From: Nostoc sp. PCC 7120 = FACHB-418
GTDB taxonomy: Bacteria > Cyanobacteriota > Cyanobacteriia > Cyanobacteriales > Nostocaceae
Reading direction: 5' to 3'
Assembly: GCF_000009705.1 (NCBI RefSeq)
Contig: NC_003272.1
Location: forward strand, 3,420,001 to 3,452,000
Length of the DNA stretch: 32,000 bases
Below the pieces are notes generated by a model that saw only the letters and a program-made list of their open reading frames with translations, was not told the DNA's origin and did no database searches. This document shows positions 2,714 to 21,920 of the stretch, one piece after another. How positions within the stretch are numbered: the stretch's first letter is position 1; each line of letters opens with the position of its first letter. The translations under genes were made by a program, and so were the position numbers.

Positions 2714-2828
2714 GAAGAGGCAGAGGGGCAGGGAGCAGGGGAGGCAGGGGAGGCAGGGGGAGAAGTCCCCAATCCCCAATCCCCAATCCCCAGTCCCCAA
2801 TCCCCAATCCCCAGTCCCTAGTCCCTTA
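2714..2828 (+). repeat. Composite STRR module, copy 2, same orientation: G-rich units, GAGAAGTCCCC junction, about nine CCCCAAT/CCCCAGT-type heptamers (2766..2828)
   Basis: Read directly. It begins 1 nt after the rimM stop and overlaps the last codons and the stop (2818..2820) of the convergent TetR gene. Confidence 0.9.
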
Positions 2829-3471
2829 TCTGATTACCTAAATAATTATTGAGATAACCCAACATCAATATTTTCGTTTCTGCTAACAGCAATTGCCGCT
2901 TTGCTGGAGTCTGACTGGTAGCCAGCCATAGAAGATCACTTACTACCTTCACTACTACTAAGGCGATCGCTTGGCATTTTTCTGCTTCTAGTTTGGGGTT
3001 GAGTTTAGCAAAGAAAGCAGCCAGTTCATCCACAATTCGATACTCATAGTTATCCATTGCTTCAATTGCTGAATATGTCATCAAGTTCAGTAATTGCTCA
3101 TACACAGCACGATACCCCGGATGGCTGTTCATAAAGTGATCGAACGCATCGATTACCCGATCAACATACACTGCAACAGGTAATGTCTCTGCTTCTTTGG
3201 TGTGCAGTTGGGCAAACAACTGATATTCCTGTTGAAAATATCGCACAGCTAAGGCTTTGAGAATGGATTCTTTATCCGGGAAGAACTGATACAAGGAACC
3301 AACAGGAACTTTAGCACGAGATGCGATCGCTCTTGTTGTTGTCTGCTCATATCCCATCTCAATAAATAATTCCTCGGCTGCACTCAGAATGTAATTAACT
3401 CGCTCCTGACTCCTCGCCTGCTGGGGTTGGCGGCGCATCTTGGAATTACTGGGAGAATTATTCGCTGTCAT
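2818..3471 (-). CDS. TetR/AcrR-family transcriptional regulator
   Basis: ORF 2818..3525 trimmed to ATG at 3471 (MTANNSPSNSKMRRQPQQARSQERVNYILSAAEELFIEMGYEQTTTRAIASRAKVPVGSLYQFFPDKESIL). This is a typical TetR N-terminal HTH followed by an all-helical ligand domain. Confidence 0.85.
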   Translation of the reverse strand: MTANNSPSNSKMRRQPQQARSQERVNYILSAAEELFIEMGYEQTTTRAIASRAKVPVGSLYQFFPDKESILKALAVRYFQQEYQLFAQLHTKEAETLPVAVYVDRVIDAFDHFMNSHPGYRAVYEQLLNLMTYSAIEAMDNYEYRIVDELAAFFAKLNPKLEAEKCQAIALVVVKVVSDLLWLATSQTPAKRQLLLAETKILMLGYLNNYLGNQIRD

Positions 3472-3487
3472 CAATCTAATTTCGCTC

Positions 3488-3541
3488 TTGACAAAACATG
3501 AACATTGTTCGTATATTTTAAACATGAATAATGTTCATGTT
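3488..3541. promoter_or_regulatory. Divergent control region with two related palindromic operator candidates overlapping a sigma70-like promoter
   Basis: Site 1 at 3495..3512 is AACATGAACATTGTTCGT, with the perfect core GAACA-T-TGTTC at 3500..3510. Site 2 at 3521..3541 is AACATGAATAATGTTCATGTT, a 19-bp palindrome with one mismatch. They share the unit AACATGAA-N3-TGTTC. On the + strand TTGACA (3488..3493) and TATATT (3512..3517) are spaced 18 nt apart, ahead of the Coq4-like gene. Confidence 0.5.
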
Positions 3542-3571
3542 TAATTGATTTTATTACTAGTAGCTCTTGCC

Positions 3572-4270
3572 ATGCAAACGATAAATACTCACCCAGTTCA
3601 GCCGTTAAAACTTGACTCGGAAGTGCAACGGCAGATGAATTTCCAGTTTTTGACGGCGATGAAAGCTTTTTTCACGTTACTAACAACAGAAGACAACATA
3701 GATGCGGTGGATGAACTTAGTAGCATCTTAATTCACAGCCGGGCCTTTGAATTGGCGGCGGAAAGTATGCAGACTGATCCTGAGGTAGCGCATTTGATCA
3801 AAGAGCGATATTATGCGCCAGTCCACGACGTAGAGCAGCTATTGCAATATCCGGCTGATTCTTTGGGTTATCTCTATGCCTCGACTCTCAAAGAATCTGG
3901 CTTTGAACGCATAGATCCTGAAATTATTGTCAATTCAGATACAGCTTACATTGAGCATCGCTGGCAGCAAACCCATGATATTTGGCATCTTGTTACGGGA
4001 TTCAGCGCCAGTGGTATTGACGAAATAGGATTACAAGCCTTTTATCTAGCACAATTTCGTCTACCCTTAGCCAGTATGCTAATTGCCAATGCCTTGATGA
4101 GTGCCACTTTACTCGCTCCAGAAGACTTACCGCAACTTCTCCAGACTATTGAACGAGGTTGGACAATGGGTTTGCAAGCCAAACCGTTATTCGCACAAAA
4201 GTGGGAAGAAGCTTGGGAAAAACCTTTATCCCAGTGGCGGGATGAATTAAATATTCAAGCTTTTAGTTAG
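3572..4270 (+). CDS. Coq4-family protein (ubiquinone biosynthesis protein COQ4 homolog)
   Basis: ORF 3545..4270 trimmed to ATG 3572 (MQTINTHPVQ...). It contains the Coq4 zinc-ligand signature HDxxH-x11-E as HDIWHLVTGFSASGIDE. Confidence 0.75.
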   Translation: MQTINTHPVQPLKLDSEVQRQMNFQFLTAMKAFFTLLTTEDNIDAVDELSSILIHSRAFELAAESMQTDPEVAHLIKERYYAPVHDVEQLLQYPADSLGYLYASTLKESGFERIDPEIIVNSDTAYIEHRWQQTHDIWHLVTGFSASGIDEIGLQAFYLAQFRLPLASMLIANALMSATLLAPEDLPQLLQTIERGWTMGLQAKPLFAQKWEEAWEKPLSQWRDELNIQAFS

Positions 4271-4719
4271 ATGGTAGAGCTAGTCCCGATGAAGCGAGTT
4301 TCACAGCCAAACAGGAAAGATGTCTTTTTCCTACACCCTTATACCCTTAAACCCCTACATCCCTTTCAAATCAGGAGGAAAGAAGTTTAGGATATGAGCC
4401 ATGAAAATAAGTATTCTTCCTGTATTTGGTTTCGTCTCATCCGCAATACCTATCCTTGGTTATCATTACTCATACAAACTAGGCGAGTAATATTTTCCTA
4501 CGGTAATCATCAGATACGGGAACAAGTTCGTTTTTGGCAGCTTTTTTATCGGTTGGACTTTGCCAGTCTCCTAGCGATCGCTATAGAATTAACCCAGCCA
4601 GAATATTGGGCGTAAAAACATCACGTAAACCTTTGAGTTCCCAATCCCCAAACACTTGAGAAAAATTACACATCGAGTTAAGCTTCCTTAGCGTAACTGC
4701 ATACTTGTAACACCAGTTA

Positions 4720-7134
4720 ATGACAAATCAATTCTCCCCGCAAATTCCCTCCTCTACTTGGAATCGTCCTATTGGCTTAGGTTGGGATAAACCTTATACT
4801 GTCCGCTATGCGAGTAATATTGATGATGGGCCTTGGCATGGTATGCCATTGGGCGGCTTTGGTGCTGGTTGTATTGGTCGTTCTTCGCGGGGAGACTTTA
4901 ACCTATGGCACATTGACGGTGGTGAGCATATTTTCCAAAATTTTCCCGCCTGTCAATTTAGTGTATTTGAAGCAAATGGCACTTCTTCCCAAGCTTATGC
5001 TTTGTCTACACAACCAACAGACGATGAAAGCTTGAAAAGTTGGCAATGGTATCCAGCATCTAGCGAAACACAGACAACAGGGACATATCACGCCTTGTAT
5101 CCCCGTAGTTGGTTTGTGTATGAGAATGTGTTTCAGGCAGAGTTAACTTGTGAGCAGTTTTCCCCTATCTGGGCAAATAATTATCAAGAGACTAGTTACC
5201 CTGTAGCGGTATTTGCTTGGCAAGCGCATAACCCCACGAATGCGCCCATAACACTCAGTATCATGCTGACCTGGCAAAATATGGTGGGTTGGTTTACTAA
5301 TGCCCTCAAATCTCCTGATGTGCGGGTGCGGGATGATGGTAGCCCGGTTTATGAGTATCAGCCGCGCTTAGGGGAAAGTGGGGGAAATTATAACTATTTA
5401 GATGAAAGTCCCCAACATCTGGGTTGCTTTTTGGGGCGGGTGGGGATGACTGAACCTTTACAGGAAGGTGAGGGGAGTTGGTGCATTGCAACTCTGAAAC
5501 ATTCCCAAGTTGAAGTTTTTTACCATACACGATGGAATCCTGTCGGTACGGGTGAGGAGGTATGGCAGAGTTTTGCGGCGGATGGTTCCTTAGCTAATCA
5601 TATAGATACCTCGTCAGTCACAGAAAATGAACAGTTAGGAGCTGCTATTGCTGTACGTTTCACCCTGCAACCAGGGGAAACCTTAGAAATCCCCTTTGTG
5701 GTGAGTTGGGATTTACCTGTGACAGAATTTGCTGCTGGAGTGAATTACTATCGCAGATATACAGACTTTTTTGGTAAAACTGGTGATCATGCTTGGGCGA
5801 TCGCAACTACTGCTCTAGAACAGTATAAAACTTGGCAACAACAAATCGAAAGTTGGCAAGACCCCATACTGAATCGTCCCGATTTGCCCGACTGGTTCAA
5901 AATGGCATTGTTTAATGAGCTTTATGACCTCACTAGCGGGGGGACTCTCTGGAGTGCGGCGACACCATGCGATCCCATCGGTCAATTTGCGGTGCTGGAA
6001 TGCCTAGATTACCGATGGTATGAAAGCTTAGATGTGCGCCTGTATGGTTCCTTTGGGTTGTTGCAACTGTTCCCAGAACTGGAAAAAGCAGTTATGCGGG
6101 CTTTTGCGCGGGCAATTCCCCAAGGGGATGATACCCCCCGTGTGATTGGTTATTACTACACCATTGGGGCAGAAAGTCCCATTGCTGTGCGTAAAACTCC
6201 AGGCGCAACACCCCACGATTTAGGCGCACCCAATGAACACGTCTGGGAAAAAACTAATTACACCAGCTATCAAGATTGCAATTTGTGGAAGGATTTAGGC
6301 TGTGATTTTGTCTTGCAAGTGTATCGGGATTTTCTCCTAACTGGTGCGGATGATGTGCAGTTCTTAAGGGATTGCTGGGATGCAATTGTGGAAACCCTTG
6401 ATTATGTAAAAACATTCGATTTAGATGGCGATGGGATTCCGGAAAATTCCGGTGCGCCAGACCAAACCTTTGATGATTGGCGTTTGCAAGGAGTTAGCGC
6501 CTATTGTGGTGGCTTGTGGTTGGCTGCATTGGCAGCAGCGATCGCTATCAGTGACATCTTATTACAAAATCACCAAGATTCAGCAACCAAAGAACATCTA
6601 CTTTACCAAAAATCCACCTATGAAACTTGGTTAACAAAATCCCTACCTATCTATCAAGAAAAACTCTGGAATGGTAAATATTATCGGCTAGATAGTGAAA
6701 GTGGTTCTGATGTTGTTATGGCAGATCAATTGTGTGGACAATTCTACGCCAACTTACTGGAATTACCGGACATTGTACCAAGCGATCGCGCAATTTCTGC
6801 ACTCCAAACTGTTTATGATGCTTGCTTCCTCAAGTTTTATGACGGTCAATTTGGTGCAGCCAATGGAGTACGTCCCGATGGTTCACCAGAGAACCCGAAA
6901 GCTACCCACCCCTTAGAAGTGTGGACAGGAATTAACTTTGGGTTGGCAGCATTTTTAGTACAAATGGGAATGAAAGACGAAGGTTTCAGGTTGACACAAG
7001 CAGTAGTAGAGCAAATCTATAATAATGGCTTACAATTCCGCACACCCGAAGCCATCACCGCCGCCGGTACTTTCCGCGCCAGTACCTATCTCCGCCCTAT
7101 GGCGATTTGGGCAATATATTTGATGATTGGTTAG
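4720..7134 (+). CDS. GH116 / GBA2-type non-lysosomal glucosylceramidase-like beta-glucosidase (804 aa)
   Basis: Long clean ORF. The N-terminal block MPLGGFGAGCIGRSSRGDFNLWH and C-terminal (alpha/alpha)6-type blocks (DWFKMALFNELYDL, ADQLCGQFY, EVWTGINFGLAAFL) resemble GBA2/GH116 proteins as I remember them. Confidence 0.85.
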   Translation: MTNQFSPQIPSSTWNRPIGLGWDKPYTVRYASNIDDGPWHGMPLGGFGAGCIGRSSRGDFNLWHIDGGEHIFQNFPACQFSVFEANGTSSQAYALSTQPTDDESLKSWQWYPASSETQTTGTYHALYPRSWFVYENVFQAELTCEQFSPIWANNYQETSYPVAVFAWQAHNPTNAPITLSIMLTWQNMVGWFTNALKSPDVRVRDDGSPVYEYQPRLGESGGNYNYLDESPQHLGCFLGRVGMTEPLQEGEGSWCIATLKHSQVEVFYHTRWNPVGTGEEVWQSFAADGSLANHIDTSSVTENEQLGAAIAVRFTLQPGETLEIPFVVSWDLPVTEFAAGVNYYRRYTDFFGKTGDHAWAIATTALEQYKTWQQQIESWQDPILNRPDLPDWFKMALFNELYDLTSGGTLWSAATPCDPIGQFAVLECLDYRWYESLDVRLYGSFGLLQLFPELEKAVMRAFARAIPQGDDTPRVIGYYYTIGAESPIAVRKTPGATPHDLGAPNEHVWEKTNYTSYQDCNLWKDLGCDFVLQVYRDFLLTGADDVQFLRDCWDAIVETLDYVKTFDLDGDGIPENSGAPDQTFDDWRLQGVSAYCGGLWLAALAAAIAISDILLQNHQDSATKEHLLYQKSTYETWLTKSLPIYQEKLWNGKYYRLDSESGSDVVMADQLCGQFYANLLELPDIVPSDRAISALQTVYDACFLKFYDGQFGAANGVRPDGSPENPKATHPLEVWTGINFGLAAFLVQMGMKDEGFRLTQAVVEQIYNNGLQFRTPEAITAAGTFRASTYLRPMAIWAIYLMIG

Positions 7135-8063: not shown

Positions 8064-11000
8064 ATGAATCCCTCTTCGTCGTTAAGAGTTCAGGGAGGGC
8101 TGCAAAAAGATCCCAGTGATCAGCCATCTCCCACTCCAGAAGTGGCTATCCTCAATCTTGTGAGGTTAGTGGCAGGGGATACGAGTCTAGTTTCAGAGTT
8201 GAGCCAAAACTGGGTAGTTCGGCAGTTTCAACTAGGTGATGAACTGGCAAATTATGTTGTAGATGCAGCAGCTACAGATAGTAGTAATGTTATTTACTTA
8301 GTTTGTCAAGGTAGAGTCCGCTTATTAGGGTTTAATCAAACTCTGGGGCGGGAAGTTTCTACTCAATTGGTATCGGCTGAACAAACTTTCGGGGCAGATC
8401 ATTTCTTTTGTCATCAAACATTACCATATCGAGCGATCGCCGCTAGTGATGGCTTTGTCATCTCTACGACAACTGCTGAATTAAAACCTTGGTTACAGGC
8501 TATCCCCCAACTCAAAAGTTACTTGCAGCGCTTAACCAGTGAACGCCAAGCACTGATATTTTTTAAAACTTATACTAAATTACATTCTCTCAAGACCAAA
8601 AAACTCCAAGAATTACTACCATATTTAATCGCTAAACATATCCCAAACGGCACATCCTTATTAGAAGCAACTCCATCAGAAAAAGGTCGTTTTTGGCTAG
8701 CAAGTGGTCAAGTACAATCAATATCAATAGCAAGTTTTTTGCCGATGGTAGGGGATAGTTGGGGATACCCTGAATCCACATTACCAGACGGCACAGCGCA
8801 AACAGATTTGCTAATTTACCAACTGTCTGCGGAAAATTGGGATTTGGCAAGAGCGATCGCTCCTGATTACTTTACTGAAAGCTATCAACCAATAGAAGCG
8901 CCCGTTGAGGTGGTTAATGTTGTCCCGGCTGATAGTAAACCCCAGATAGCCCTACCCAAGTTACAGAATTTACGATCGCTTACAGCACCAGCCATAGCCA
9001 CATCCGACATCGAAGATATCGACTTTCCCCAAGGAGTCAAACAACACAAATCACGGTCGTCCTACTCCTACCCATTTATTCAACAACAGAGTTCATCAGA
9101 CTGTGGTGCAGCTTGTTTGGCGATGATTAGTCAATATTGGGGTAAACGCTTAAGTCTGTATAGTTTGAGGAATTTAGCCCAGGTAGACCGCAATGGCGCA
9201 TCCCTTGAAGGTTTGACCGTAGCAGCTCAAACCTTAGGTTATGATGTGCTACCAGTGCGGGGAAGTTTGCCCAAATTAGAGTGGCACTATAACCCTTGGG
9301 TTGCTCACTGGCAAGGAAATCACTATGTAGTAGTGTGGCAGATTAAAGGCGATCGCGTCTTAATTTCTGATCCGGCTGTAGGTAGGAAATGGCTGTCACG
9401 TCCGCAATTTGAAACGAGTTGGACAGGCTACGCCCTATTATTAGACCCCACAGAAAGTTTTCAAGCCCTCAAGAGTGAAAAATTTTCTCTTGGTCGCTAT
9501 GGGCAAACATTGTGGAATTATCGGACAGTGCTTAGGCAAATAATTCTTGCCTCCTTACTGGTACAAGTTTTTGGGTTGGCAACTCCCCTGTTTACTCAGG
9601 TGATTCTCGACCAAGTAATGCCTATCAAAAACTTGCCGAATTTGCATATATTTGCGTTCAGCTTTTTATGTTTGGGTATCTGGCGGACTGTGTTAACGGC
9701 GCAGCACCAAAACTTACTAGATTATTTTGCTAACCGCATAGATTTAAGCTTGATTGGCGGTTTTATTAACTATACGTTGCAGTTACCCTTACAATTTTTC
9801 GCCTCCCGCCAGGTAGATGATATTATTAGCCGCGTTCAAGAAAACCGCAAAATTCAACTGTTTATTAGCCGTAGGGCAATTGGGGCGGCGGTAGATATCT
9901 TGATGGTAATGACTTATCTGGGGTTGATGACCTATTACAGTTGGCAACTCACTCTTTTAGTTTTGAGTTGGATTATCCCCGTAGTGATTTTAACTGTAGT
10001 TGCCAGTCCCTACCTCAAGCAAGCATCAAGAGAAATTTTTCAGGAATCCGCCAGACAACACTCTTCAATGGTAGAGATTATGACTGGGGTGGCGACAGTC
10101 AAAACCGCCACCGCCGAACGCCCTTTGCAGAAGTATTGGGAAGAGCGGTTTTTAAAAATGCTGAAGGTGCGGTTGCGGGGACAAAAGTTAGCCCATCGTT
10201 TACAAGTGACGCGGACGTTAATTAATCATGTTGGTAGTACCCTGGTTTTATGGTTTGGGGCTACTTTGGTGATGGGTGGGAAAATGTCCTTGGGACAGTT
10301 TGTGGCTTTCAATATGCTAACTGGGAATGTGACTCATCCAGTTTTGTCATTAGTTGGGTTATGGGATGAGTTTCAAGAAATATTGATTTCCGTGGAACGA
10401 CTCAATGATGTTTATGCGGCCGTCCCAGAAGCCAGTTCCCAAACAACTTTACTTGTGATGCCGCCAATTCGAGGCGAGGTAAGATTTGAGAATGTTTCGT
10501 TTCGTTATAACTCGTTTCAAGAACGCAACGCCTTACAAAATATCTCTTTTGGTATCAAACCCCAACAAACTATCGGCATCATTGGTCAAAGTGGTTCGGG
10601 TAAAAGTACTTTAGCTAATTTATTAGCTGGTTTATATCGCCCTGATACAGGCAGGATTTTGATTGATGGACATGATATGGCTGGGGTATCTCCCCAATCC
10701 TTGCGGAGTCAAGTCGGATTAGTAGCACAAGACAGTTTTCTATTTTCGGGAACGATTTTAGAAAACATTACTTTGCACGATCAAGAACTGAGCTTAATCC
10801 AAGCGATCGCCGCCGCCAAGTTAACCGGCGCACACGATTTTATCCAAGCCTTACCTCTGGGTTACGACACCCAAGTGGGAGAACGAGGTTTCATGCTTTC
10901 TGGGGGACAAAGGCAAAAAATTGCGATCGCCCGTGCTTTGGTAAGAAATCCCAAAATTTTGATTTTAGATGAAGCCACTAGCGGTTTAGATGCAGAATCA

Positions 11001-11198
11001 GAACGCCGCTTTCAACAGAATTTAGCCCAAATTAGTCAGGAACGGACTACTTTTATCGTTTCTCACCGTCTTTCTACTGTGCGCTATGCTGACCATATTT
11101 TTGTCATAGACCAAGGAATGGTGATTGAACATGGCACTCATCAGGAACTAATGGCGATCGCTGGTCTTTATCACCACTTAGCTCAACTGCAACTATAG
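8064..11198 (+). CDS. hetC: HetC: ABC exporter with an N-terminal cNMP-binding-like region, a C39 (double-glycine) peptidase domain, a 6-TM domain and an ABC ATPase (1044 aa)
   Basis: C39 catalytic block QQQSSSDCGAACLAMISQYWG (Cys347, TGT 9102..9104), with a downstream His (AHWQGNHYVVV) and Asp (ISDPAVG). Walker A is GQSGSGKST, the signature is LSGGQRQKIAIARAL and Walker B is ILILDEATS. The length and the position next to hetP match Anabaena HetC. Confidence 0.95.
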   Translation: MNPSSSLRVQGGLQKDPSDQPSPTPEVAILNLVRLVAGDTSLVSELSQNWVVRQFQLGDELANYVVDAAATDSSNVIYLVCQGRVRLLGFNQTLGREVSTQLVSAEQTFGADHFFCHQTLPYRAIAASDGFVISTTTAELKPWLQAIPQLKSYLQRLTSERQALIFFKTYTKLHSLKTKKLQELLPYLIAKHIPNGTSLLEATPSEKGRFWLASGQVQSISIASFLPMVGDSWGYPESTLPDGTAQTDLLIYQLSAENWDLARAIAPDYFTESYQPIEAPVEVVNVVPADSKPQIALPKLQNLRSLTAPAIATSDIEDIDFPQGVKQHKSRSSYSYPFIQQQSSSDCGAACLAMISQYWGKRLSLYSLRNLAQVDRNGASLEGLTVAAQTLGYDVLPVRGSLPKLEWHYNPWVAHWQGNHYVVVWQIKGDRVLISDPAVGRKWLSRPQFETSWTGYALLLDPTESFQALKSEKFSLGRYGQTLWNYRTVLRQIILASLLVQVFGLATPLFTQVILDQVMPIKNLPNLHIFAFSFLCLGIWRTVLTAQHQNLLDYFANRIDLSLIGGFINYTLQLPLQFFASRQVDDIISRVQENRKIQLFISRRAIGAAVDILMVMTYLGLMTYYSWQLTLLVLSWIIPVVILTVVASPYLKQASREIFQESARQHSSMVEIMTGVATVKTATAERPLQKYWEERFLKMLKVRLRGQKLAHRLQVTRTLINHVGSTLVLWFGATLVMGGKMSLGQFVAFNMLTGNVTHPVLSLVGLWDEFQEILISVERLNDVYAAVPEASSQTTLLVMPPIRGEVRFENVSFRYNSFQERNALQNISFGIKPQQTIGIIGQSGSGKSTLANLLAGLYRPDTGRILIDGHDMAGVSPQSLRSQVGLVAQDSFLFSGTILENITLHDQELSLIQAIAAAKLTGAHDFIQALPLGYDTQVGERGFMLSGGQRQKIAIARALVRNPKILILDEATSGLDAESERRFQQNLAQISQERTTFIVSHRLSTVRYADHIFVIDQGMVIEHGTHQELMAIAGLYHHLAQLQL

Positions 11199-14679: not shown

Positions 14680-16053
14680 TTAAGCTAAGTGCATAAACAC
14701 AATCTTTAATAACTCTGCACGGGTGAAAGGTTTAGTTAGATATCCAGATGCACCAGCTAATCTGGCTCTGACTTTGTCAACTAATCCCTTATAACTTGTA
14801 ACGAATATAATCGGCGTATTTTTAAACATGGAATTATTGCGAATAATCCTACACAATTCATAGCCATCAATACCAGCCATATTCAGATCCAGTAAAATCA
14901 AGTCTGGTTTATGTCTGATAATTGACATAGCAGCCTTGAGCGGATCATTGATAGCAATTACTGTGAAATTCTCACTTTCTAAGAAATAGCTAATTTCTTT
15001 GAGAATTGTCGGACTATCATCTACAGAAACGATTTTATAAACTTGTCGAGTAGTTCCGGTAGCAGGCATTACTCTTTCCGGAATAGAATTTGTGGTATTT
15101 GATAATGTTAGTTCCTGATGGCTTGCTTTGGCAGGAGTATAAGGTTGTGGTAATCGCACCACAGGAGCTAAATTATCTACTGCAAGAATTGGGGTGATTG
15201 GCGTAGCATTACTACTGAGTTCTACGACTGTATCTACTAATTTTCTACTCAGTAATGCAGTTGTGTATTTAGGAGTTAATGTTGATTCTGCTAGAATTTT
15301 GGGTAATTGATCAAATGGTGGATCTGGTTCATGTAATATAATCTCTCCGGTGAGGATGTAAGGATATAAATTTTGAGCTAACTGGATTTCATCTTGATTC
15401 ATAATTATAGCCAGATGACGCAGGCTGAAACCCTTCATCCAGTAAGTCAATTTTGGCTGGAGTTCTGGAGAATTTTTACCGTTAATCAACAGATATGGAC
15501 GTTGATAGGGTGATGTGATGTTTGGTAAGTAAGATTGCCAATTTTGTAGTCTAATTTGACAACGTTCCATTACCTTGACTGTATCAAGTCGGCAAATTGC
15601 AGGTAATTTCACCTGTGAATTACTTAATTCATAAGTGCCATTTTTAATTAACAGAAATGATTCAATTACATCCTTAACTAATTCTTGAATCAGCATCGTG
15701 GCTTGTGCAGTATCTAAATATTCTTGCTCGACAAGCCAATTAACAGCTTGGTAATCAGGCAGATGAATAGTATCGCTGGAATTTTGCGCTTCGATTTCAA
15801 ACAGCAAGCGTAACTGCACCCGAATTTCATTTGTCACTTGAGAAAAGTGTTGGCTGAGGCGGCGCAAATGGCGTTCTAATCTATCGAATGGTTCTACAGA
15901 ATGAGTTGCATAGGTTATTGTTCCATCTTCTAAGTAAATTGACCAAGTGACTGAGTTGCTAAAAGCTTGTAAACAAGTGGTGTCAAAACAACTAGATAAA
16001 TGTCTTAACAAACCCTGAGGACTTAGTGCTGTAAATGTGCCGTGATATTTCAT
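14680..16053 (-). CDS. PatA-subfamily response regulator: N-terminal PATAN-like domain plus C-terminal CheY-like receiver (457 aa)
   Basis: The C-terminal ~120 aa form a canonical receiver: VSVDDSP acidic pair, phospho-acceptor in DLILLDLNMAGIDG, IFVTS, and YLTKPF Lys. The long N-terminal region resembles the PATAN domain architecture of PatA/PixG-type regulators; that call is by architecture, not alignment. Confidence 0.8.
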   Translation of the reverse strand: MKYHGTFTALSPQGLLRHLSSCFDTTCLQAFSNSVTWSIYLEDGTITYATHSVEPFDRLERHLRRLSQHFSQVTNEIRVQLRLLFEIEAQNSSDTIHLPDYQAVNWLVEQEYLDTAQATMLIQELVKDVIESFLLIKNGTYELSNSQVKLPAICRLDTVKVMERCQIRLQNWQSYLPNITSPYQRPYLLINGKNSPELQPKLTYWMKGFSLRHLAIIMNQDEIQLAQNLYPYILTGEIILHEPDPPFDQLPKILAESTLTPKYTTALLSRKLVDTVVELSSNATPITPILAVDNLAPVVRLPQPYTPAKASHQELTLSNTTNSIPERVMPATGTTRQVYKIVSVDDSPTILKEISYFLESENFTVIAINDPLKAAMSIIRHKPDLILLDLNMAGIDGYELCRIIRNNSMFKNTPIIFVTSYKGLVDKVRARLAGASGYLTKPFTRAELLKIVFMHLA

Positions 16054-16656
16054 ATTGTTAATTACTTTGTCAAAAGATACAAGATTTATGTCCGGATTTG
16101 GAGCTTTTACTATGAGATATTCATCATGTTTGGATATTTTTTTGGTTCTTCTGGAATAAAGACAGATACATTTTTTACTAACTAGAAGCTTTAGACACTC
16201 AAGAGGATGTTAACTTGCAAACCATGTACTGAAATCTTATTCTTTTAGCAATTTTCACATTCAAGTTCTCTTGGTTACATTAGGTATTTTGTTCATAGTG
16301 ATTAATTGAATTATCAATTTATTTTCTATATAGAAAAACAAAAACTCCACACAAAATCTTTAAAAATTTATGTAGGCAAAATCAAACTATTTATTATATT
16401 CTGTGGTTGCTCTATATAAATTTTGATAGATGGATTAATGTCTCGAATGGAAACCTACGATTTATTATTGACTCTACATTTTGATTAAGATTTTCTTAAA
16501 TGTGTAGAGCTTTCGGTGAGAAGGATCTTTATTAATGAAGATTAAACCAGCTACCGCCAAACATCTACCTGTGGTCTTGTCGGCTTCGGCTGTGGAAACT
16601 ATATACTTTGAAAAAAGGAAAATAGAGCTTTGGACTATAACATAACACAAAACGTT

Positions 16657-17331
16657 ATGAATGATACTTTGACCCTAGATGAAGTAGTAGAGTTTGCTGA
16701 GAACCCAGAACCACGCTGTCCTTGCGTGTTGTTGCTCGATACATCTGGCTCGATGCAAGGTGCTGCTATAGAAGCTCTAAATCAGGGCTTGCTCAGTTTG
16801 AAAGATGAGCTGATGAAAAATTCCATAGCAGCCAGACGGGTAGAAATTGCGATCGTTACTTTTGATAGTCATATCAATGTAATACAAGACTTTGTGACTG
16901 CCGATCAATTTAACCCACCAATTCTGACAGCGCAAGGATTAACTAGTATGGGGGCTGGTATTCACAAAGCCTTGGACATGGTACAAGAGCGCAAATCTTT
17001 GTATCGTGCCAATGGTGTTGCTTACTATCGTCCTTGGGTGTTTATGATTACTGATGGTGAACCACAAGGTGAACTAGATCATTTAGTAGAACAAGCAGCG
17101 TTGCGTTTACAAGGTGATGAAGTTAATAAACGTGTGGCATTTTTCAGCGTAGGTGTGGAAAATGCGAACATGACACGGCTTAACCAAATAGCTGTCAGAA
17201 CGCCACTTAAACTCAAAGGACTAAACTTTATTGAAATGTTTGTTTGGCTATCGGCTAGTATGTCGGCAGTTTCTCATTCGCAAATTGATGAGCAGGTAGC
17301 GCTACCGCCGATTGGCTGGGGATCTATCTAA
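16657..17331 (+). CDS. von Willebrand factor A (vWA) protein, TerY/YegL-like, with an intact MIDAS motif
   Basis: The ORF opens at TTG 16630 (AGGA 9 nt upstream); the first ATG is 16657 (MNDTLTLDEVVEFAENPEPRCPCVLLLDTSGSMQG). The MIDAS motif is DxSxS (DTSGS) plus a downstream Thr (LTSMG) and Asp (MITDGEP). Confidence 0.9.
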   Translation: MNDTLTLDEVVEFAENPEPRCPCVLLLDTSGSMQGAAIEALNQGLLSLKDELMKNSIAARRVEIAIVTFDSHINVIQDFVTADQFNPPILTAQGLTSMGAGIHKALDMVQERKSLYRANGVAYYRPWVFMITDGEPQGELDHLVEQAALRLQGDEVNKRVAFFSVGVENANMTRLNQIAVRTPLKLKGLNFIEMFVWLSASMSAVSHSQIDEQVALPPIGWGSI

Positions 17332-17368
17332 ATAGGAGTTACGCATGAAGACGAAGAATCGAGAGTAT

Positions 17369-17485
17369 GGGGGGGTAGGGGTACAGGGGTATAGGGGTAT
17401 AGGGGTGCGGGGGTATAGGGGTAACTAAAATACTCACACCCTTACACCCTCACACCCTTACACCCCTCACACCCTTACACCCTCA
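17369..17485 (+). repeat. Inverted G-rich / C-rich octamer arrays able to form a long imperfect hairpin
   Basis: The left arm (17369..17424) holds about 6 units of GGGGTATA/GGGGTACA. The loop is ACTAAAATACT. The right arm (17436..17485) holds about 6 units of CACCCTTA/CACCCTCA. As RNA each unit can pair at 7 of 8 positions, counting one G:U. The array fills the vWA-PP2C spacer. Confidence 0.8.
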
Positions 17486-17541
17486 TTGCGTAGTTCCATT
17501 GCGGCTTGACACTTACACAGCTAGCTGACACAACAAACTAT

Positions 17542-18324
17542 ATGAAAACATCAAAACAGAACCCTCATTGGCAGGTAGTCGCCGCTTCTGTCTGTGGAAC
17601 AAGCCACATGAAAACTAAGCAGTTGTGTCAGGATGCTCACCACTGGCAATTATTGCCGGGGAATGTTTTGGTGGCGGCGGCCGCAGATGGCGCGGGTTCT
17701 GCAAGTCAAGGGAAAGTTGGAGCGATGGTGGCGGTAGAAACAGCGATTGAGAGTTTATCGCTGAGAGATATTACCAGAGATTCCCTGGCTGATGATGAAA
17801 CTGTGCGATCGCTTTTAACTGAGGCTTTGCTGGCTGCCAAAAAAGCTGTGGAAGATGAAGCAGTAGCTTGTCAAAAACAGCCCCAGGATTTAGCGACTAC
17901 CTTAATTATTGCGATCGCCTCACCAGAAATGGTAGCAGCTGCACAAATCGGTGATGGGATGGCAGTAGCTAAGGATCATTTGGGCAACTTACTGGCATTA
18001 ACCATCCCAGACAACGGCGAATACATTAACGAGACAACTTTTTTAACGTCACCAGGTGCGTTAGAAACGGCGCAGATGCGATTATGGCGCGAAACCATCG
18101 TCAACATTGGACTCCTCACCGATGGGCTGCAAATGCTGGCTTTAAATATGGTTGTTAGTGAACCTCACAAACCCTTCTTTTTTCCGTTATTCGACTTTGT
18201 AAAAAACGCCGAAGATCAAGCAGAAGCAAAAGAGCAGCTAGTAAAGTTTCTAGGCTCTGAGAGGATTACACAACGTACTGACGATGATTTAACGCTGATT
18301 ATAGGTGCCTTTAATCATTTGTAA
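17542..18324 (+). CDS. PP2C-family Ser/Thr protein phosphatase (PP2C_2-like)
   Basis: ORF 17506..18324 trimmed to ATG 17542 (MKTSKQNPHWQVVAASVCGTSHMKTKQLCQDA). The metal-ligand blocks AADGAGSA, IGDGMA and LLTDGL are typical of the bacterial PP2C_2 group found beside vWA and kinase genes. Confidence 0.85.
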   Translation: MKTSKQNPHWQVVAASVCGTSHMKTKQLCQDAHHWQLLPGNVLVAAAADGAGSASQGKVGAMVAVETAIESLSLRDITRDSLADDETVRSLLTEALLAAKKAVEDEAVACQKQPQDLATTLIIAIASPEMVAAAQIGDGMAVAKDHLGNLLALTIPDNGEYINETTFLTSPGALETAQMRLWRETIVNIGLLTDGLQMLALNMVVSEPHKPFFFPLFDFVKNAEDQAEAKEQLVKFLGSERITQRTDDDLTLIIGAFNHL

Positions 18325-18330
18325 AGGTGT

Positions 18331-18384
18331 GTCAGTGGTCAGTCGTCAATAGTTTTCTTCTCCCCCTGCCCCCTGCCCCCTGCC
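18331..18384 (+). repeat. 40-bp dispersed element (copy B) extended by a (CCCCTGC)n tail
   Basis: GTCAGTGGTCAGTCGTCAATAGTTTTCTTCTCCCCCTGCC followed by CCCTGCCCCCTGCC. It starts 7 nt after the PP2C stop and fills most of the 89-nt spacer before the kinase ATG. Confidence 0.8.
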
Positions 18385-18413
18385 TTTCTTATACCCTTAA
18401 CCGTAATTTAATC

Positions 18414-20612
18414 ATGAAGGTACTACGTTATCTTCCTCAGGAAGAGATTATCAGCCTCAGCGTGAGTTTGGGGCGTGGCGGTGAAGCGTGTATTTATGCT
18501 GTGCCGTCGGCCGGTGATTGTGTGGCAAAGATTTATCACAAGCCGACAGTTGCCCACGCCAGCAAACTCCGGGCTATGCTTGCTAACCCACCGGAAAATC
18601 CTACGGCTAGTTTGGGTCATATTTCCATTGCTTGGCCGCAAGAATTATTGTGGGGAGCAGATGAAAGCGAACGCGTTATTGGCTTTTTGATGCCGCGTAT
18701 TCGGGGGATGCGTCCCATCATCGACTTTTACAACCCCCGGACTCGCCGTCAACACTGTCCTTTATTTAATTATCAGTACCTCCTGCGGACAGCGCGGAAT
18801 TTGGCGGCGGCTTTTGCGGCTTTACATAATAGTGGCTATTCTGTAGGCGATGTCAACGAATCTAACATTTTGGTAAGTGACACAGCCCTGGTTACCTTGG
18901 TAGATACGGATTCTTTCCAGGTATGTGACCCGGATAATGATATTGTTTATCGTTGCCCGGTAGGGAAACCAGAGTTTACCCCACCAGAACTACAGAATAA
19001 AATCTTTGCTCATCACGATCGCCAACCTACTCATGATTTATTTGGTTTAGGGGTGCTAATCTTCCAACTGCTGATGGAAGGTACCCATCCCTTTTCTGGT
19101 ATTTATCAAGGCATTCCTGAACCACCACCTTATGAAGCCAGAATTGCGTCGGGACATTTCACCTATAGTAAAAAACGGCAAGTACCTTACATACCTACTC
19201 CCATCGCCCCGCCTTGGGAAATTCTCCATCCCAGTTTACAAGCGCTGTTTATTCGTTGTTTTGAGGATGGTCACAATGAACCCCAACTGCGCCCTAATGC
19301 CCAAGCTTGGCTGTCGGCTATAGCTGAGGCTGAAGATTCCCTGACTACCTGTACAGTTAATTCTCAACATCACTACAGTAATCACCTGCACAGTTGTCCT
19401 TGGTGCGAACGTGCTTTACGTTTGGGTGGTCGTGACCCATTTCCTTCGGTGCAAGCAATTGAAAATAGAGAACATCTCCGCCCCCGCATCCCCACCAAGA
19501 GACGCTACGGCCACAGCCATCAGCCTGCTAACTTGCCGCAGCCAGTGATGCCGATGTATCAAAGCAATTGGCATTCACCCACCCCCAGTTTTTCACCTTA
19601 CCGCAATCGCTGGAAAGGAAAGTTTTATCCGGTAGTTTTTTGTTTGTTGGGTTTTGGGGTTTTGGGGTACTTGGATGTGGTGACAAAATTCACCAGTCCT
19701 TTAGTATCGCGCAATAATTATGCTCAACAAGCGCTGATGCCTCAGCAAGCCAGTGGTAATATCGCCCTGAGTTTTGCAGAGTACTACAAACAGGGTCATG
19801 CTGCTTACCAAGTGCGTGATTATAAACAGGCAGTGGATAACTTCACCCATGCCATTCAGCAGGAATCAGCAAATGCCAGAGTCTTGGTTAATCGAGGTAA
19901 TGCGCGTTATAACCTGAAAGACTATGAAGGTGCTTTAGCTGATTACACGGCAGCTTTGCAAATTAATCCCAGAGAAATCAAAGCTTTTGTGAATCGGGGT
20001 AACTCCCGCTTAATGCTGGCTGAATATAGCAATGACCCTGACCAACAGTATAGATTAGCGATCACCGACTTTAATCACGCCCTGAAACTCAACGAGAAGG
20101 AAGCCGAAGCCTATATCCGCCGAGGGATTGTGCGAACGCAAATGGCTAAATATAGCAGCGACACCATTAAAGATTACCAAGAAGCGATCACCGATTTTGA
20201 CCAAGCCCTGAAACTTAATCCCGCGAAAACCGAAGCTTACTTTCAGCGTGCTTCCGTCCGCTATCTCATTGCCCAATATACAGGTGATTCGACAAAGGAA
20301 TATGATCAGGCGATCGCCGATTTTGATCAAGCATTAAAAATTAACGACAAACTAGCCAAAGTGTATCTTAAACGCGGCATGGTGCGTTACGAATTAGCAC
20401 AAATTACTAGTAATAAATCTGATGTCAATAACGCCAAAGCTCTTGCAGATTTACAGCTAGCCGCCAAACTTTCTTTAGAACAAGAAGATACAGAAAGTTA
20501 TCAACAAGCACTCAGCAGTATCTGTATCATTGAGGAAAGCAAATGTAATGCTTTATTCCAAAGCTCTACAATGCGAGGATATGCCAGCACAGACTTGATA
20601 GCAAAACAGTAA
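18414..20612 (+). CDS. Ser/Thr protein kinase (YegI/TerY-P type) fused to a CxxC segment, one TM helix and a C-terminal TPR-like repeat array (732 aa)
   Basis: ORF 18327..20612 trimmed to ATG 18414 because the upstream codons are repeat-encoded. Kinase motifs: VAKIY (catalytic Lys), GDVNESNIL (catalytic loop), DTDSF (DFG equivalent) and FTPPE (APE equivalent). SCPWC is near 19395, the TM segment FYPVVFCLLGFGVLGYLDVV is at 19623..19682, and the TPR-like repeats run from about 19767 to 20520. Confidence 0.9.
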   Translation: MKVLRYLPQEEIISLSVSLGRGGEACIYAVPSAGDCVAKIYHKPTVAHASKLRAMLANPPENPTASLGHISIAWPQELLWGADESERVIGFLMPRIRGMRPIIDFYNPRTRRQHCPLFNYQYLLRTARNLAAAFAALHNSGYSVGDVNESNILVSDTALVTLVDTDSFQVCDPDNDIVYRCPVGKPEFTPPELQNKIFAHHDRQPTHDLFGLGVLIFQLLMEGTHPFSGIYQGIPEPPPYEARIASGHFTYSKKRQVPYIPTPIAPPWEILHPSLQALFIRCFEDGHNEPQLRPNAQAWLSAIAEAEDSLTTCTVNSQHHYSNHLHSCPWCERALRLGGRDPFPSVQAIENREHLRPRIPTKRRYGHSHQPANLPQPVMPMYQSNWHSPTPSFSPYRNRWKGKFYPVVFCLLGFGVLGYLDVVTKFTSPLVSRNNYAQQALMPQQASGNIALSFAEYYKQGHAAYQVRDYKQAVDNFTHAIQQESANARVLVNRGNARYNLKDYEGALADYTAALQINPREIKAFVNRGNSRLMLAEYSNDPDQQYRLAITDFNHALKLNEKEAEAYIRRGIVRTQMAKYSSDTIKDYQEAITDFDQALKLNPAKTEAYFQRASVRYLIAQYTGDSTKEYDQAIADFDQALKINDKLAKVYLKRGMVRYELAQITSNKSDVNNAKALADLQLAAKLSLEQEDTESYQQALSSICIIEESKCNALFQSSTMRGYASTDLIAKQ

Positions 20613-20616
20613 TTAA

Positions 20617-20630
20617 TTGTCAGTTGTCAG
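20617..20630 (+). repeat. (TTGTCAG)x2 heptamer pair 4 nt after the kinase stop codon
   Basis: Read directly. It is identical to the pair at 7135..7148. Confidence 0.8.
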
Positions 20631-20666
20631 GTGTTAATAATCAATCATTTACATCGTCATTCGAGT

Positions 20667-20773
20667 TATACCAATTGGAAAAAAGAATGGGACAAATGAA
20701 CCATCTGTAGAGACGCGATTCATCGCGTCTTCTTCACCCAAGGATGTGTTGCAATCATTAATTGAATTGGTAT
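20667..20773. mobile_element. MITE-like small element (~107 bp) with terminal inverted repeats and a central perfect palindrome
   Basis: The terminal inverted repeats are TATACCAATT (20667..20676) and AATTGGTAT (20765..20773). The central palindrome is AGACGCGAT-TC-ATCGCGTCT (20711..20730). The GTAGAGACGCGATTCATCGCGTCT motif is one I recognise as a multi-copy Nostoc repeat. There is no coding capacity. Confidence 0.45.
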
Positions 20774-20823
20774 TAATTTCTGTTGCCTTAGTTTGTGCCT
20801 ACACTGAAAAATTCAAGTGTATC

Positions 20824-20858
20824 TAGGGTGTGTTATCACTTAGGGTAACGCACCCTAC
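20824..20858. repeat. Hairpin repeat of the GTAGGGTGCG family
   Basis: TAGGGTG (20824..20830) pairs with CACCCTA (20851..20857). The reverse complement of the 3' part reads GTAGGGTGCGTTACCCTAA, which relates it to the inverted repeat at 28339..28402. Confidence 0.6.
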
Positions 20859-20929
20859 TTGTATTGCAAAATTCCAAATAATGTTCAATATTTCATCGTT
20901 CATAATTTAGGACTAGACTCTTTATTTTT

Positions 20930-20957
20930 GACAACGGACAACGGACAACTAACAATT
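20930..20957. repeat. Heptamer array GACAACG GACAACG GACAACT AACAATT
   Basis: Read directly. It is related to the reverse complement of the TTGTCAG-type units. Confidence 0.8.
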
Positions 20958-21146
20958 AATTCATTCACTAAGCTTTCATATCTAAAAGATTTATATTTAC
21001 TCATTCTTTATACAAAAGCTCAGAAAAACAGTTAGATTATGTACGGAGAAAAATAAAAGAGAAGTGAATTTTTCTCCCATCCATGTGCATCCTCTTCATC
21101 CCGATATTCAAAAATTAATCTAACTGCAAATCCCCAAGGTAATTGT

Positions 21147-21920
21147 ATGAAAGCGGTGATTTTGGCTGGAGGGCTTGGTACACGCCTCAGTGAAGAAACC
21201 AGTATCAAGCCTAAGCCGATGGTAGAAATTGGTGGTAAACCAATTCTTTGGCACATCATGAAAACTTATTCTAGCCACGGCATTAATGATTTTATTATTT
21301 GTTGTGGTTACAAAGGTTACGTGATTAAGGAGTATTTTGCTAACTACTTCTTACATATGTCTGATGTAACTTTTGATATGCGTTTTAACCAGATGAATAT
21401 CCATTCTGGTTACGCTGAACCTTGGCGAGTAACTTTGGTCAACACAGGCGATAATACTATGACTGGTGGACGCTTAAAACGTGTCCGCGAACATCTTGGG
21501 AATGATACTTTTTGTTTTACTTATGGTGACGGTGTATGTGATATTAATATCACCGAATTAATTAAGTTTCATCGAGAACAAAAGAGTTTAGCAACCCTGA
21601 CAGCAGTCCAACCAGCAGGACGTTTCGGGGCAATTTCCCTGGGATACGAACAAACTAAAATAACCAGTTTCCGGGAAAAGCCCGAAGGTGATGGTGCTTG
21701 GATTAACGGTGGTTATTTTATCTTAGAACCAGAAGTCATAGATTTAATTGCTGATGATGCTACCGTTTGGGAAAAAGAACCACTAGAAAAGCTAGCAGAT
21801 ATGGAGGAATTATCTGCTTTTAAACACAATGGTTTTTGGCAACCAATGGATACATTGCGTGATAAAAACTATCTAGAGGAGTTATGGAAAAATAACCAAG
21901 CTCCTTGGAAAGTGTGGTAA
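21147..21920 (+). CDS. rfbF: Glucose-1-phosphate cytidylyltransferase (CDP-glucose pyrophosphorylase)
   Basis: MKAVILAGGLGTRLSEETSIKPKPMVEIGGKPILWHIMKTYSSHGINDFIICCGYKGYVIKEYFANYFLHMSDVTFDM is nearly identical in its blocks to Salmonella RfbF as I remember it. It would be the first gene of the HEP island. Confidence 0.9.
   Translation: MKAVILAGGLGTRLSEETSIKPKPMVEIGGKPILWHIMKTYSSHGINDFIICCGYKGYVIKEYFANYFLHMSDVTFDMRFNQMNIHSGYAEPWRVTLVNTGDNTMTGGRLKRVREHLGNDTFCFTYGDGVCDINITELIKFHREQKSLATLTAVQPAGRFGAISLGYEQTKITSFREKPEGDGAWINGGYFILEPEVIDLIADDATVWEKEPLEKLADMEELSAFKHNGFWQPMDTLRDKNYLEELWKNNQAPWKVW

Follow-up and report, generated by a model that had tools for sequence, protein, structure and literature searches.

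A YegL-PphC-YegI/TerY-P-type phosphorylation triad with a predicted receptor-type TPR kinase in the heterocyst envelope polysaccharide locus of Anabaena sp. PCC 7120

The window analysed here is a stretch of 32,000 nucleotides from the cyanobacterium Nostoc (Anabaena) sp. PCC 7120 (NC_003272.1, positions 3,420,001 to 3,452,000). Near its middle lie three co-oriented genes for a vWA protein, a PP2C phosphatase and a Ser/Thr kinase, adjoining the genes for heterocyst envelope polysaccharide (HEP). Read from their best-supported starts, these open reading frames (ORFs) occupy 16657-17331, 17542-18324 and 18414-20612 on the + strand; the outer coordinates given by an earlier model-made reading of the sequence (the first-pass annotation) were correct. 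By gene order and from the literature, the triad is alr2822-alr2823-alr2824 of Anabaena sp. PCC 7120. Its domain content is unsurprising. What the locus appears to hold is a YegL-PphC-YegI/TerY-P triad with a receptor-type TPR kinase inside a developmental polysaccharide locus. The genes and the parts of the kinase are as follows.

16657..17331, + strand: alr2822, YegL/TerY-like vWA protein, 224 aa, cytoplasmic
17542..18324, + strand: alr2823, PP2C_2-type Ser/Thr phosphatase, 260 aa, PphC homologue
18414..20612, + strand: alr2824, kinase, 732 aa
18414..19349, + strand: alr2824 residues 1-312, atypical Hanks-type kinase domain, YegI family
19350..19406, + strand: alr2824 residues 313-331, zinc ribbon C-x5-H-x-Y-x6-C-P-W-C, family-wide
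19623..19685, + strand: alr2824 residues 404-424, sole predicted transmembrane helix
19761..20561, + strand: alr2824 residues ~450-716, TPR solenoid, predicted non-cytoplasmic

The best-supported starts are the ATG codons at 16657, 17542 and 18414; the mechanical ORFs open slightly upstream, at TTG or GTG. The TTG at 16630 was rejected as the start of alr2822 because indels in Fischerella disrupt the frame and the alignment to Escherichia coli YegL begins at the ATG. The profiles expected by the first-pass annotation were all matched in Pfam (VWA/VWA_2, PP2C_2 and Pkinase, the last barely above its cut-off), and the motifs that it had quoted for the three proteins are present and align with functional residues of their homologues.

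Alr2822 matched the Pfam families VWA (1.9e-11) and VWA_2 (2e-8) and is 55% identical to YegL over its full length (E = 3e-75). The metal ion-dependent adhesion site (MIDAS) is complete (D28, S30, S32, T96, D133) and the C-terminal motif of TerY, W197..S201..S206, is present. All of these residues, together with P218, are invariant among Alr2822, YegL, three TerY proteins encoded on plasmids and the homologues from Cupriavidus and a Firmicute, in agreement with the earlier description of a TerY/YegL-like vWA protein with a full MIDAS. A hydropathy scan of Alr2822 revealed no hydrophobic segment.

Alr2823 matched Pfam PP2C_2 (7.9e-57) and is 39% identical to E. coli PphC (E = 5e-39). The PP2C residues D31, D49, D137, D194 and D247-249 are in place. 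D49 corresponds to D46 of PphC, an essential residue in a phosphatase that dephosphorylates YegI (bioRxiv 10.1101/819920, 10.1101/303594). Both the Pfam match and the alignment of the metal-site aspartates with those of PphC confirm the assignment to the PP2C_2 type.

Residues 11-331 of Alr2824 align with YegI at 37% identity over 323 aa (E = 1e-61). The Pfam Pkinase match (1e-7, 32.1 bits against a cut-off of 31.7) covers profile positions 98-199 alone, which is the catalytic half. The key residues of the domain are VAK39, VGD146xxxxN151, D164-T-D-S167, TPPE192 (T189-P-P-E192), D208 and R293, which supply the Hanks catalytic residues of subdomain II (K39), the catalytic loop (D146 and N151), the metal site (D164) and subdomains IX (D208) and XI (R293); DTD stands in place of DFG. 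We aligned the Nostocales orthologues with a cyanobacterial paralogue, E. coli YegI and a Firmicute kinase. Invariant kinase residues in this alignment were G22-G23-E24, V37-A38-K39, G145-D146, N148, D164, D166-S167, P191-E192-L193, D208, R293-P294 and W299. In YegI, mutagenesis showed K39, D141 and a DSD loop standing in for DFG to be essential; this loop is autophosphorylated, and the kinase is active despite similar deviations from the alpha-C Glu and DFG (bioRxiv 10.1101/819920). The Alr2824 kinase looks catalytically competent, as first proposed, since its catalytic residues hold in the alignment and agree with the mutagenesis of YegI (bioRxiv 10.1101/819920). Both YegI and PphC favour Mn2+ (bioRxiv 10.1101/819920, 10.1101/303594). 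Searches of PDB sequences yielded no solved relative, and an NCBIfam scan gave generic sub-threshold matches only.

The CxxC segment that follows the kinase domain had been listed as a peculiarity of this copy. It belongs to a zinc ribbon whose C313, H319, Y321, C328, P329 and C331 are invariant in the alignment just described, YegI and the Firmicute homologue included, and C313, H319, C328, P329, W330 and C331 are invariant across 80 cluster representatives. A C-terminal zinc ribbon fusion is also described for the TerY-P kinase (PMC11090510). The segment is a trait of the family and not of this copy.

Beyond the ribbon, residues 404-424 form the only 19-residue window with a Kyte-Doolittle value above 1.6, with four Lys/Arg residues before it and two after it. 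The helix is conserved in the orthologues and is placed at 405-426 in the AlphaFold2 (AF2) model. The region that follows matched TPR families in Pfam (TPR_11, 2.3e-23) and is modelled by AF2 as a solenoid of 13 helices at a predicted local distance difference test score of ~88-97; a pair of cysteines in it, C704 and C711, is invariant in the orthologue alignment. For the kinase domain AF2 gave a poor model, as its input was a shallow alignment of close relatives. The kinase domain needs access to ATP, so with a single transmembrane helix the TPR domain would be periplasmic or lumenal and Alr2824 would be a receptor-type kinase.

How far this arrangement departs from the family was judged by an exhaustive search with the kinase-plus-ribbon module, which at E <= 1e-30 matched 3834 clusters (50% identity). 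The proteins closest to the module (53-65% identity) are numerous, and many of them carry WD40 propellers. The nearest 150 cluster representatives range from 379 to 1484 aa in length, and 90 of them have one hydrophobic segment after the ribbon; WD40 propellers were found in 24 of the 60 representatives scanned. These varied lengths and C-terminal domains indicate that the family is modular, with a constant kinase module and swappable C-terminal domains. The transmembrane helix, also listed earlier as a peculiarity, is therefore none, for YegI has two passes and 90 of the 150 relatives have one segment. The claim that the TPR-like array departs from the family did hold: only one of the 150 nearest representatives (P0121) shares the TPR domain over its full length, and the named members of the TPR form returned by the protein search are all from heterocyst-forming genera. 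The true departure from the family thus appears to be a single transmembrane helix followed by a Nostocales-specific TPR domain.

Two other kinases touch on this family. A metagenome-assembled genome (MAG) of an uncultured cyanobacterium encodes a paralogous kinase (L012, 9968-12127) made up of a kinase-plus-ribbon module 55% identical to that of Alr2824, then a transmembrane segment, then WD40-like repeats. Neither a vWA nor a PP2C gene adjoins it, which indicates that the kinase module exists outside triads in cyanobacteria too. In PCC 7120 itself, a possible paralogue of the Alr2824 family is all0438. This gene, annotated as 'Ser/Thr kinase with WD-40 repeat', is down in the same sigC and sigE microarrays that are discussed below for the triad.

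E. coli has the genes in the same order, and the compact vWA-PP2C-kinase arrangement recurs in a Christensenellaceae MAG, a Cupriavidus megaplasmid and a single contig of the viral collection IMG/VR. In E. coli, yegL-pphC-yegI is present in 5415 of 5426 complete genomes (99.8%) as a single chromosomal copy that adjoins mdtABC and yegD. The orthologues carry such names at JGI as 'uncharacterized protein YegL' and 'DNA-binding helix-hairpin-helix protein with protein kinase domain'. With identities of 55%, 39% and 37% and the same gene order, the earlier view that the locus is a TerY-P-type triad with the architecture of yegL-pphC-yegI was upheld, and on these alignments we regard it as a genuine member of the type that belongs to the YegL-PphC-YegI branch. 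The two loci share the atypical kinase signature (VAK, a VGD loop for HRD and D-S/T-D-S for DFG), the C-x5-H...CPWC zinc ribbon, the metal-binding aspartates of PP2C_2, a membrane-anchored kinase and a core chromosomal rather than mobile location. They differ in the C-terminal half of the kinase. YegI has two hydrophobic segments, was found by experiment to be two-pass with both ends cytoplasmic, and ends in a helix-hairpin-helix region, whereas Alr2824 has one hydrophobic segment and then a TPR domain of ~300 aa. In the catalytic loop Alr2824 has Asn (N151) where YegI has Ser. The genomic neighbours of the two triads are completely different. The E. coli genes have no known inducing condition (PMC13232886); those of Anabaena share with the HEP genes a response to nitrogen step-down.

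Similarity to the canonical TerY-P genes of tellurite-resistance (ter) clusters, such as those on IncHI2 plasmids, is more distant. The clusters have in common with the triad a vWA protein with the MIDAS and W..S..S motifs, a PP2C_2 phosphatase (29% identical) and a kinase for which a zinc ribbon has been described (PMC11090510), but the vWA proteins are just 24-30% identical. That plasmid TerY shares both motifs despite such low identity shows that the locus truly belongs to the broad TerY-P architecture. Several copies of TerY, one with the metal-binding TerY-C domain, occur in the ter clusters among terW, terD and terZABCDE on conjugative plasmids. No ter genes, restriction modules or DNA-processing modules lie near the triad, which has the gene for a PatA-like regulator on one side and genes for sugar-nucleotide enzymes and glycosyltransferases on the other. 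On one IncHI2 ter plasmid (L016, 6995-8035) the TerY-C extension of the third TerY reads CPHC...CSC...CPWC and resembles the CPWC ribbon of YegI and Alr2824; the same metal-binding module may sit on different triad partners in different branches.

The neighbourhood of the triad was examined in 14 Nostocales loci: the window, ten Nostocaceae-type loci taken from a genome-contig scan that returned 12 loci, Fischerella PCC 9605, Nostocales HT-58-2 and a 2.7-Mb metagenomic Nostocales contig (L019). One of the Nostocaceae-type loci, L006, ends before the vWA gene and the regulator. In the window, the hetC side of the triad includes the following genes.

14680..16053, - strand: PatA-like response regulator, probably all2821 (Pfam DUF4388/PatA_N 6.8e-16, Response_reg 6.2e-26)
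8064-11198: hetC, C39-peptidase ABC exporter (from Pfam and context)

An ORF of 175 aa occupies the position of hetP upstream of the triad, and from 21147 downstream follow genes for a nucleotidyl transferase (NTP_transferase), a DAO oxidoreductase, an epimerase and glycosyltransferases. The arrangement of a PatA_N-REC gene on the - strand, the vWA-PP2C-kinase genes and the sugar genes from alr2825 onward was fixed in all 14 loci (partial in L006). The PatA-like gene stood in the divergent position in 13 of the 13 loci that reach that far, as had been stated for the copy in the window, and is separated from the vWA gene by 506-605 bp in the Nostocaceae-type loci. Beyond it the flank is variable, with hetC and hetP in the nearest relatives only and pheT, a transposase or other genes elsewhere. 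Of the location between hetC/hetP and the HEP island that the first-pass annotation had emphasized, the HEP side is thus kept in all loci and the hetC/hetP side is lost outside the closest relatives. The synteny comparison that it had proposed found the triad, the PATAN-REC gene and the HEP genes co-conserved in all of the Nostocales loci compared.

Orthologues at least 64% identical over their full length are spread across the Nostocales, whose sequences also filled the list of matches to the vWA protein, and judged by this comparison the triad is a fixed, vertically inherited part of the HEP locus in heterocyst formers. The vWA protein is 94-100% identical within the Nostocaceae-type loci. 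Relative to Fischerella and HT-58-2, identity was 82-85% for the vWA protein, 72-75% for the PP2C, 67% for the kinase and 58-60% for the PatA-like regulator. Conservation of the vWA protein so far above that of its partners, including the 55% identity to YegL, suggests that it has many constrained interaction surfaces.

Three of the contigs deserve separate mention. Between the kinase gene and the alr2825 orthologue lie about 7 kb of inserted DNA in Nostoc sp. CMAA1605 (L008, 12182-19230) and in Aliinostoc sp. HNIBRCY26 (L009, 12185-19031). The contig DATNQO010000179.1 (L011), labelled as a Leptolyngbyaceae MAG, has a Nostocaceae-type locus with the whole HEP arrangement and proteins 84-98% identical to those of PCC 7120. 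It is probably a mis-binned contig and not evidence of the triad in a non-heterocystous lineage.

Published expression data link the triad to the HEP genes. Microarrays taken 8 h into nitrogen step-down show lowered expression of alr2822-24 in the sigC and sigE mutants, along with that of alr2825-41, hepB and all4160 (PMC4390870). The genes alr2822-2841 have been reported as one unit, and the HEP island drops 2- to 3.5-fold in a cse mutant (PMC7065334). Some papers give the HEP island as alr2822-alr2841 or alr2823-alr2841 (PMC7065334, PMC10406281, PMC7797909). Regulation of the Hep layer is still described as poorly understood in a 2026 study that does not mention the triad (PMC13555669). The first-pass annotation had called the triad uncharacterised, and the literature agrees: the search found no functional study, and the genes are absent from that 2026 paper (PMC13555669).

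Adjacency to the HEP genes, co-regulation with them and the TPR domain of the orthologues from heterocyst formers favour a role in envelope formation or development. We put the probability at roughly one in two that the triad is a developmental phospho-switch tied to the formation of the heterocyst envelope polysaccharide. Of the two hypotheses raised earlier, this is the one that synteny and co-regulation support better. Several points count against it. Synteny and co-expression are correlative. The E. coli homologues lie beside unrelated genes, and the family therefore has no intrinsic link to polysaccharide. Under its strict definition the HEP island comprises alr2825-alr2841 and leaves the triad out (PMC13555669, PMC4390870, PMC13342950). 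The kinase has a marginal Pkinase score, and its alpha-C glutamate is not evident, there being no acidic residue at the position of the YegI Asp. The periplasmic placement of the TPR domain is predicted from hydropathy, with which insertion in the thylakoid membrane would fit equally well. The sample of TPR-type triads was one of Nostocales loci. Finally, no functional study of alr2822-24 was found in the literature, the coverage of which was partial, so that an earlier Fox+ negative is possible, and no mutant, phosphorylation or localisation data were found for alr2822, alr2823 or alr2824.

The known regulators of the Hep layer are listed as HepK, HepN, HepS, HenR, All4160 and Alr3423 (PMC13555669). 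HepK/DevR, HepN, HepS and the HenR-All4160-Alr3423 partner-switching pathway act on Hep formation through reversible phosphorylation at a post-transcriptional level (PMC13555669), a mode of control that we propose for the triad too. Those proteins belong to other families, namely histidine kinases, a SpoIIE-type phosphatase, a STAS-domain protein and an anti-sigma-type kinase. The genes for HepK/DevR, HepN, HepS (a Ser/Thr kinase) and HenR-All4160-Alr3423 lie outside the HEP locus and have mutant phenotypes, whereas none is reported for the triad.

If the triad does act as an envelope switch, Alr2824 would be a single-pass receptor Ser/Thr kinase with the kinase domain and ribbon in the cytoplasm and the TPR domain in the periplasm. 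The TPR domain might read the state of the envelope, or the machinery for polysaccharide export or assembly, in the differentiating cell. Activation would be by autophosphorylation in the D-T-D-S loop, and the PphC-like Alr2823 would reset the kinase. Alr2822 could be a phosphorylation-controlled adaptor or substrate, with S201 and S206 as candidate sites, that relays the signal to proteins of HEP synthesis or export, possibly together with the PatA-like response regulator. Gene content and order, the conserved catalytic residues, the homology to biochemically active YegI and PphC, the synteny with HEP genes and, from published work, the co-regulation with them at 8 h of step-down are established; we infer the membrane topology, the nature of the signal, the part played by the vWA protein, the targets and the connection with envelope deposition. 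The more specific proposal, a receptor-type checkpoint in which the TPR domain senses the growing envelope and phosphorylation of the vWA adaptor controls the HEP synthesis and export machinery, is tentative, and we consider it somewhat more likely to be wrong than right. A similar logic is known from the type VI secretion system of Pseudomonas, in which PpkA, a single-pass receptor Hanks kinase with a periplasmic sensor, the PP2C PppA and the phospho-dependent adaptor Fha1 switch an envelope-spanning machine. In that pathway an FHA protein serves as the adaptor, and the vWA domain belongs to the kinase, of which it forms the periplasmic portion. The resemblance is an analogy only, since the sequences are related no further than by their kinase and PP2C folds.

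YegI-type kinases form a very large family, yet no inducing condition, substrate or phenotype is reported for the E. coli genes in the literature consulted. The Anabaena copy, with expression timed at ~8 h after nitrogen step-down, a defined pathway next to it and probably a defined cell type, would offer a tractable setting for an orphan family. All heterocyst formers examined keep this set of kinase, phosphatase, adaptor and response regulator next to their HEP genes, which makes the four proteins obvious candidates for control of the envelope. Should the checkpoint proposal be right, it would provide the first physiological role, signal and target in the YegL-PphC-YegI/TerY-P family and a new post-translational layer in heterocyst morphogenesis.

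Other roles for the triad have to be weighed against an envelope switch. It might be a general switch for envelope stress or metals, perhaps Mn2+-dependent, that is parked beside the HEP genes and swept along in their induction without controlling HEP. The role first proposed for TerY-P was that of a metal-sensing phosphorylation switch (Anantharaman 2012, as cited in PMC11090510), the MIDAS of Alr2822 is intact, YegI and PphC prefer Mn2+ (bioRxiv 10.1101/819920, 10.1101/303594) and in E. coli the relatives belong to the chromosomal core and have no tie to polysaccharide. Against this reading, adjacency to the HEP genes is kept from the Nostocaceae to Fischerella when the other flank is not, and the triad has its own conserved upstream region yet tracks the HEP genes in two sigma-factor mutants; we regard it as unlikely. 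A part in heterocyst commitment or patterning, in which the triad acts with the PatA-like regulator and not on the envelope, is suggested by the divergent PatA_N-REC gene that always adjoins it, by hetC and hetP upstream in PCC 7120, by a DIF1-type TCCGGA at 16091-16096 and by a precedent for control through a kinase, Pkn22, which is reported to phosphorylate HetR (PMC6985446). Set against these are the loss of the hetC/hetP adjacency outside the nearest relatives, the restriction of TCCGGA to PCC 7120 and a 97%-identical relative (L002), and an expression pattern that tracks the morphogenesis (HEP) genes at 8 h, all of which make a patterning role improbable.

Defence against phages was the other hypothesis of the first-pass annotation, in which sensing of infection by a TerY-P-type system would lead to a phosphorylation-dependent response. 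Its premise was accurate, in that a TerY-P cassette proved antiphage in the large screen of Gao et al. 2020 (PMC11090510, PMC7699616). Cassettes resembling TerY-P confer protection from T7-like phages and occur within CoCoNuT and McrBC-type systems (PMC11090510, PMC7699616, PMC4978471). The triad has the same three-domain composition and order, its kinase domain gave weak matches to the PADLOC models mad6, MkoA and PD-T4-6, and a full triad occurs on one IMG/VR contig. The likeness to the antiphage systems of Gao et al. 2020 ends with the composition of vWA, PP2C and Ser/Thr kinase. The PADLOC TerY model PDLC02224 did not match Alr2822 (YegL itself gave E = 0.032), Alr2823 matched no PADLOC model even at E <= 10, and the PADLOC matches of the kinase are generic to the kinase core; the E. 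coli proteins likewise gave no TerY-P membership. In the validated systems the kinase is fused to an OB fold (PMC11090510), whereas Alr2824 ends in a zinc ribbon, a linker, a transmembrane helix and the TPR domain. Those systems are distributed as defence islands. Here the locus is developmental, fixed and vertically inherited in 14 Nostocales loci rather than patchy; the triad neighbourhoods examined hold no restriction or nuclease genes, expression is developmentally co-regulated with the HEP genes, and there was one match among 2.9 million viral contigs. With no TerY-P membership from the PADLOC check of the proteins and a fixed locus, the defence hypothesis was not sustained, and we consider it very improbable. 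TerY-P domain composition alone should not be taken to mean defence unless evidence at the level of the subfamily supports it.

The viral contig is an observation of its own. IMG/VR UViG_3300008408_000055 (L020, 214 kb) carries the whole triad in the same order at 2286-5897, with 36%, 28% and 32% identity for the vWA protein, the PP2C and the kinase, respectively. It is the only contig of the viral collection with a relative of the kinase, and jumbo phage and host DNA are both possible sources.

The remaining features of the locus concern its transcription and its spacers.

16330..16656, + strand: triad upstream region or leader, conserved at the nucleotide level in 12 intergenic regions, Fischerella and HT-58-2 included
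16354-16369: quasi-palindrome AAATCTTTAAAAATTT within the triad upstream region
16373-16400: predicted promoter-like TAGGCA-16-TATATT, from a promoter scan
16596-16656: near-invariant leader of ~60 bp, from the upstream alignment
17332..17541, + strand: spacer 1, two inverted 8-mer arrays forming a long hairpin
18325..18413, + strand: spacer 2, 3.3 copies of CCCCCTG at 18362-18384
20824..20857, + strand: hairpin of 14 pairs with a weak T tail downstream of the kinase gene, terminator-like
20963-21052: conserved upstream block of alr2825, distinct from the triad upstream region

Within the triad a conserved upstream region precedes the vWA gene only. As alr2825 has a separate conserved upstream block, the triad looks like its own operon-like transcription unit beside the HEP genes. 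The region at 16330-16656 is a candidate binding site for a regulator or a candidate leader RNA element. The quasi-palindrome in it is a predicted FurC site, to which FurC failed to bind in an electrophoretic mobility shift assay (PMC10406281). An Rfam scan of 15900-21300 gave only chance matches far below the gathering scores, among them the spacer hairpin to microRNA precursors, and assigned no Rfam family and no riboswitch to the leader of the triad.

Two shorter motifs were also considered. TCCGGA is a -35 element recognised by sigma-HetZ, of which the hep cluster is reported to be a direct target (PMC13342950). The copy at 16091-16096, which sits 38 bp from the start of the PatA-like gene, was rejected as a conserved sigma-HetZ promoter of the triad, being limited to PCC 7120 and its relative L002 and not above chance in number. 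No TCCGGA was found between the kinase gene and alr2825. The motif ATCT..AAAA.ATTTAT precedes both alr2822 (16356-16371) and alr2825 (20980-20994) in PCC 7120. It was defined only after the fact, other loci do not conserve it at alr2825, and it counts as no more than a lead.

Structured repeats in both spacers had been described as a distinguishing feature of this copy. Tandem Repeats Finder placed the arrays of spacer 1 at 17365-17423 (GTATAGGG-type) and 17433-17485 (ACACCCTT-type), and the RNA fold of this spacer (-84.7 kcal/mol, z = -5.75) agrees with the description; its hairpin has no T-tract and received no terminator call. For spacer 2 the description failed, its structure not being significant (z = -0.39). 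Nor do the repeats distinguish the system, since they are species-specific and are absent from Fischerella PCC 9605, HT-58-2 and L019, where the spacers are repeat-free and 30-58 bp long. In other Nostocaceae the same two spacers hold repeats of the types CCCCAGT, CCCCAAT, GCCCCAT, CAGTTAT, TTGGTAA and AAAGGCA. Because the unit and copy number vary by species and repeats are missing in the deep-branching Nostocales, the arrays are fast-evolving filler of the short tandemly repeated repetitive (STRR) type, inserted in an ancestrally compact operon, and are not a conserved part of the system. Across L002-L011 both spacers of the triad are hot spots where STRR-type repeats turn over while the intergenic sites themselves stay fixed, and in L006 one of them reaches 400 bp, with arrays that fold at -154 kcal/mol.

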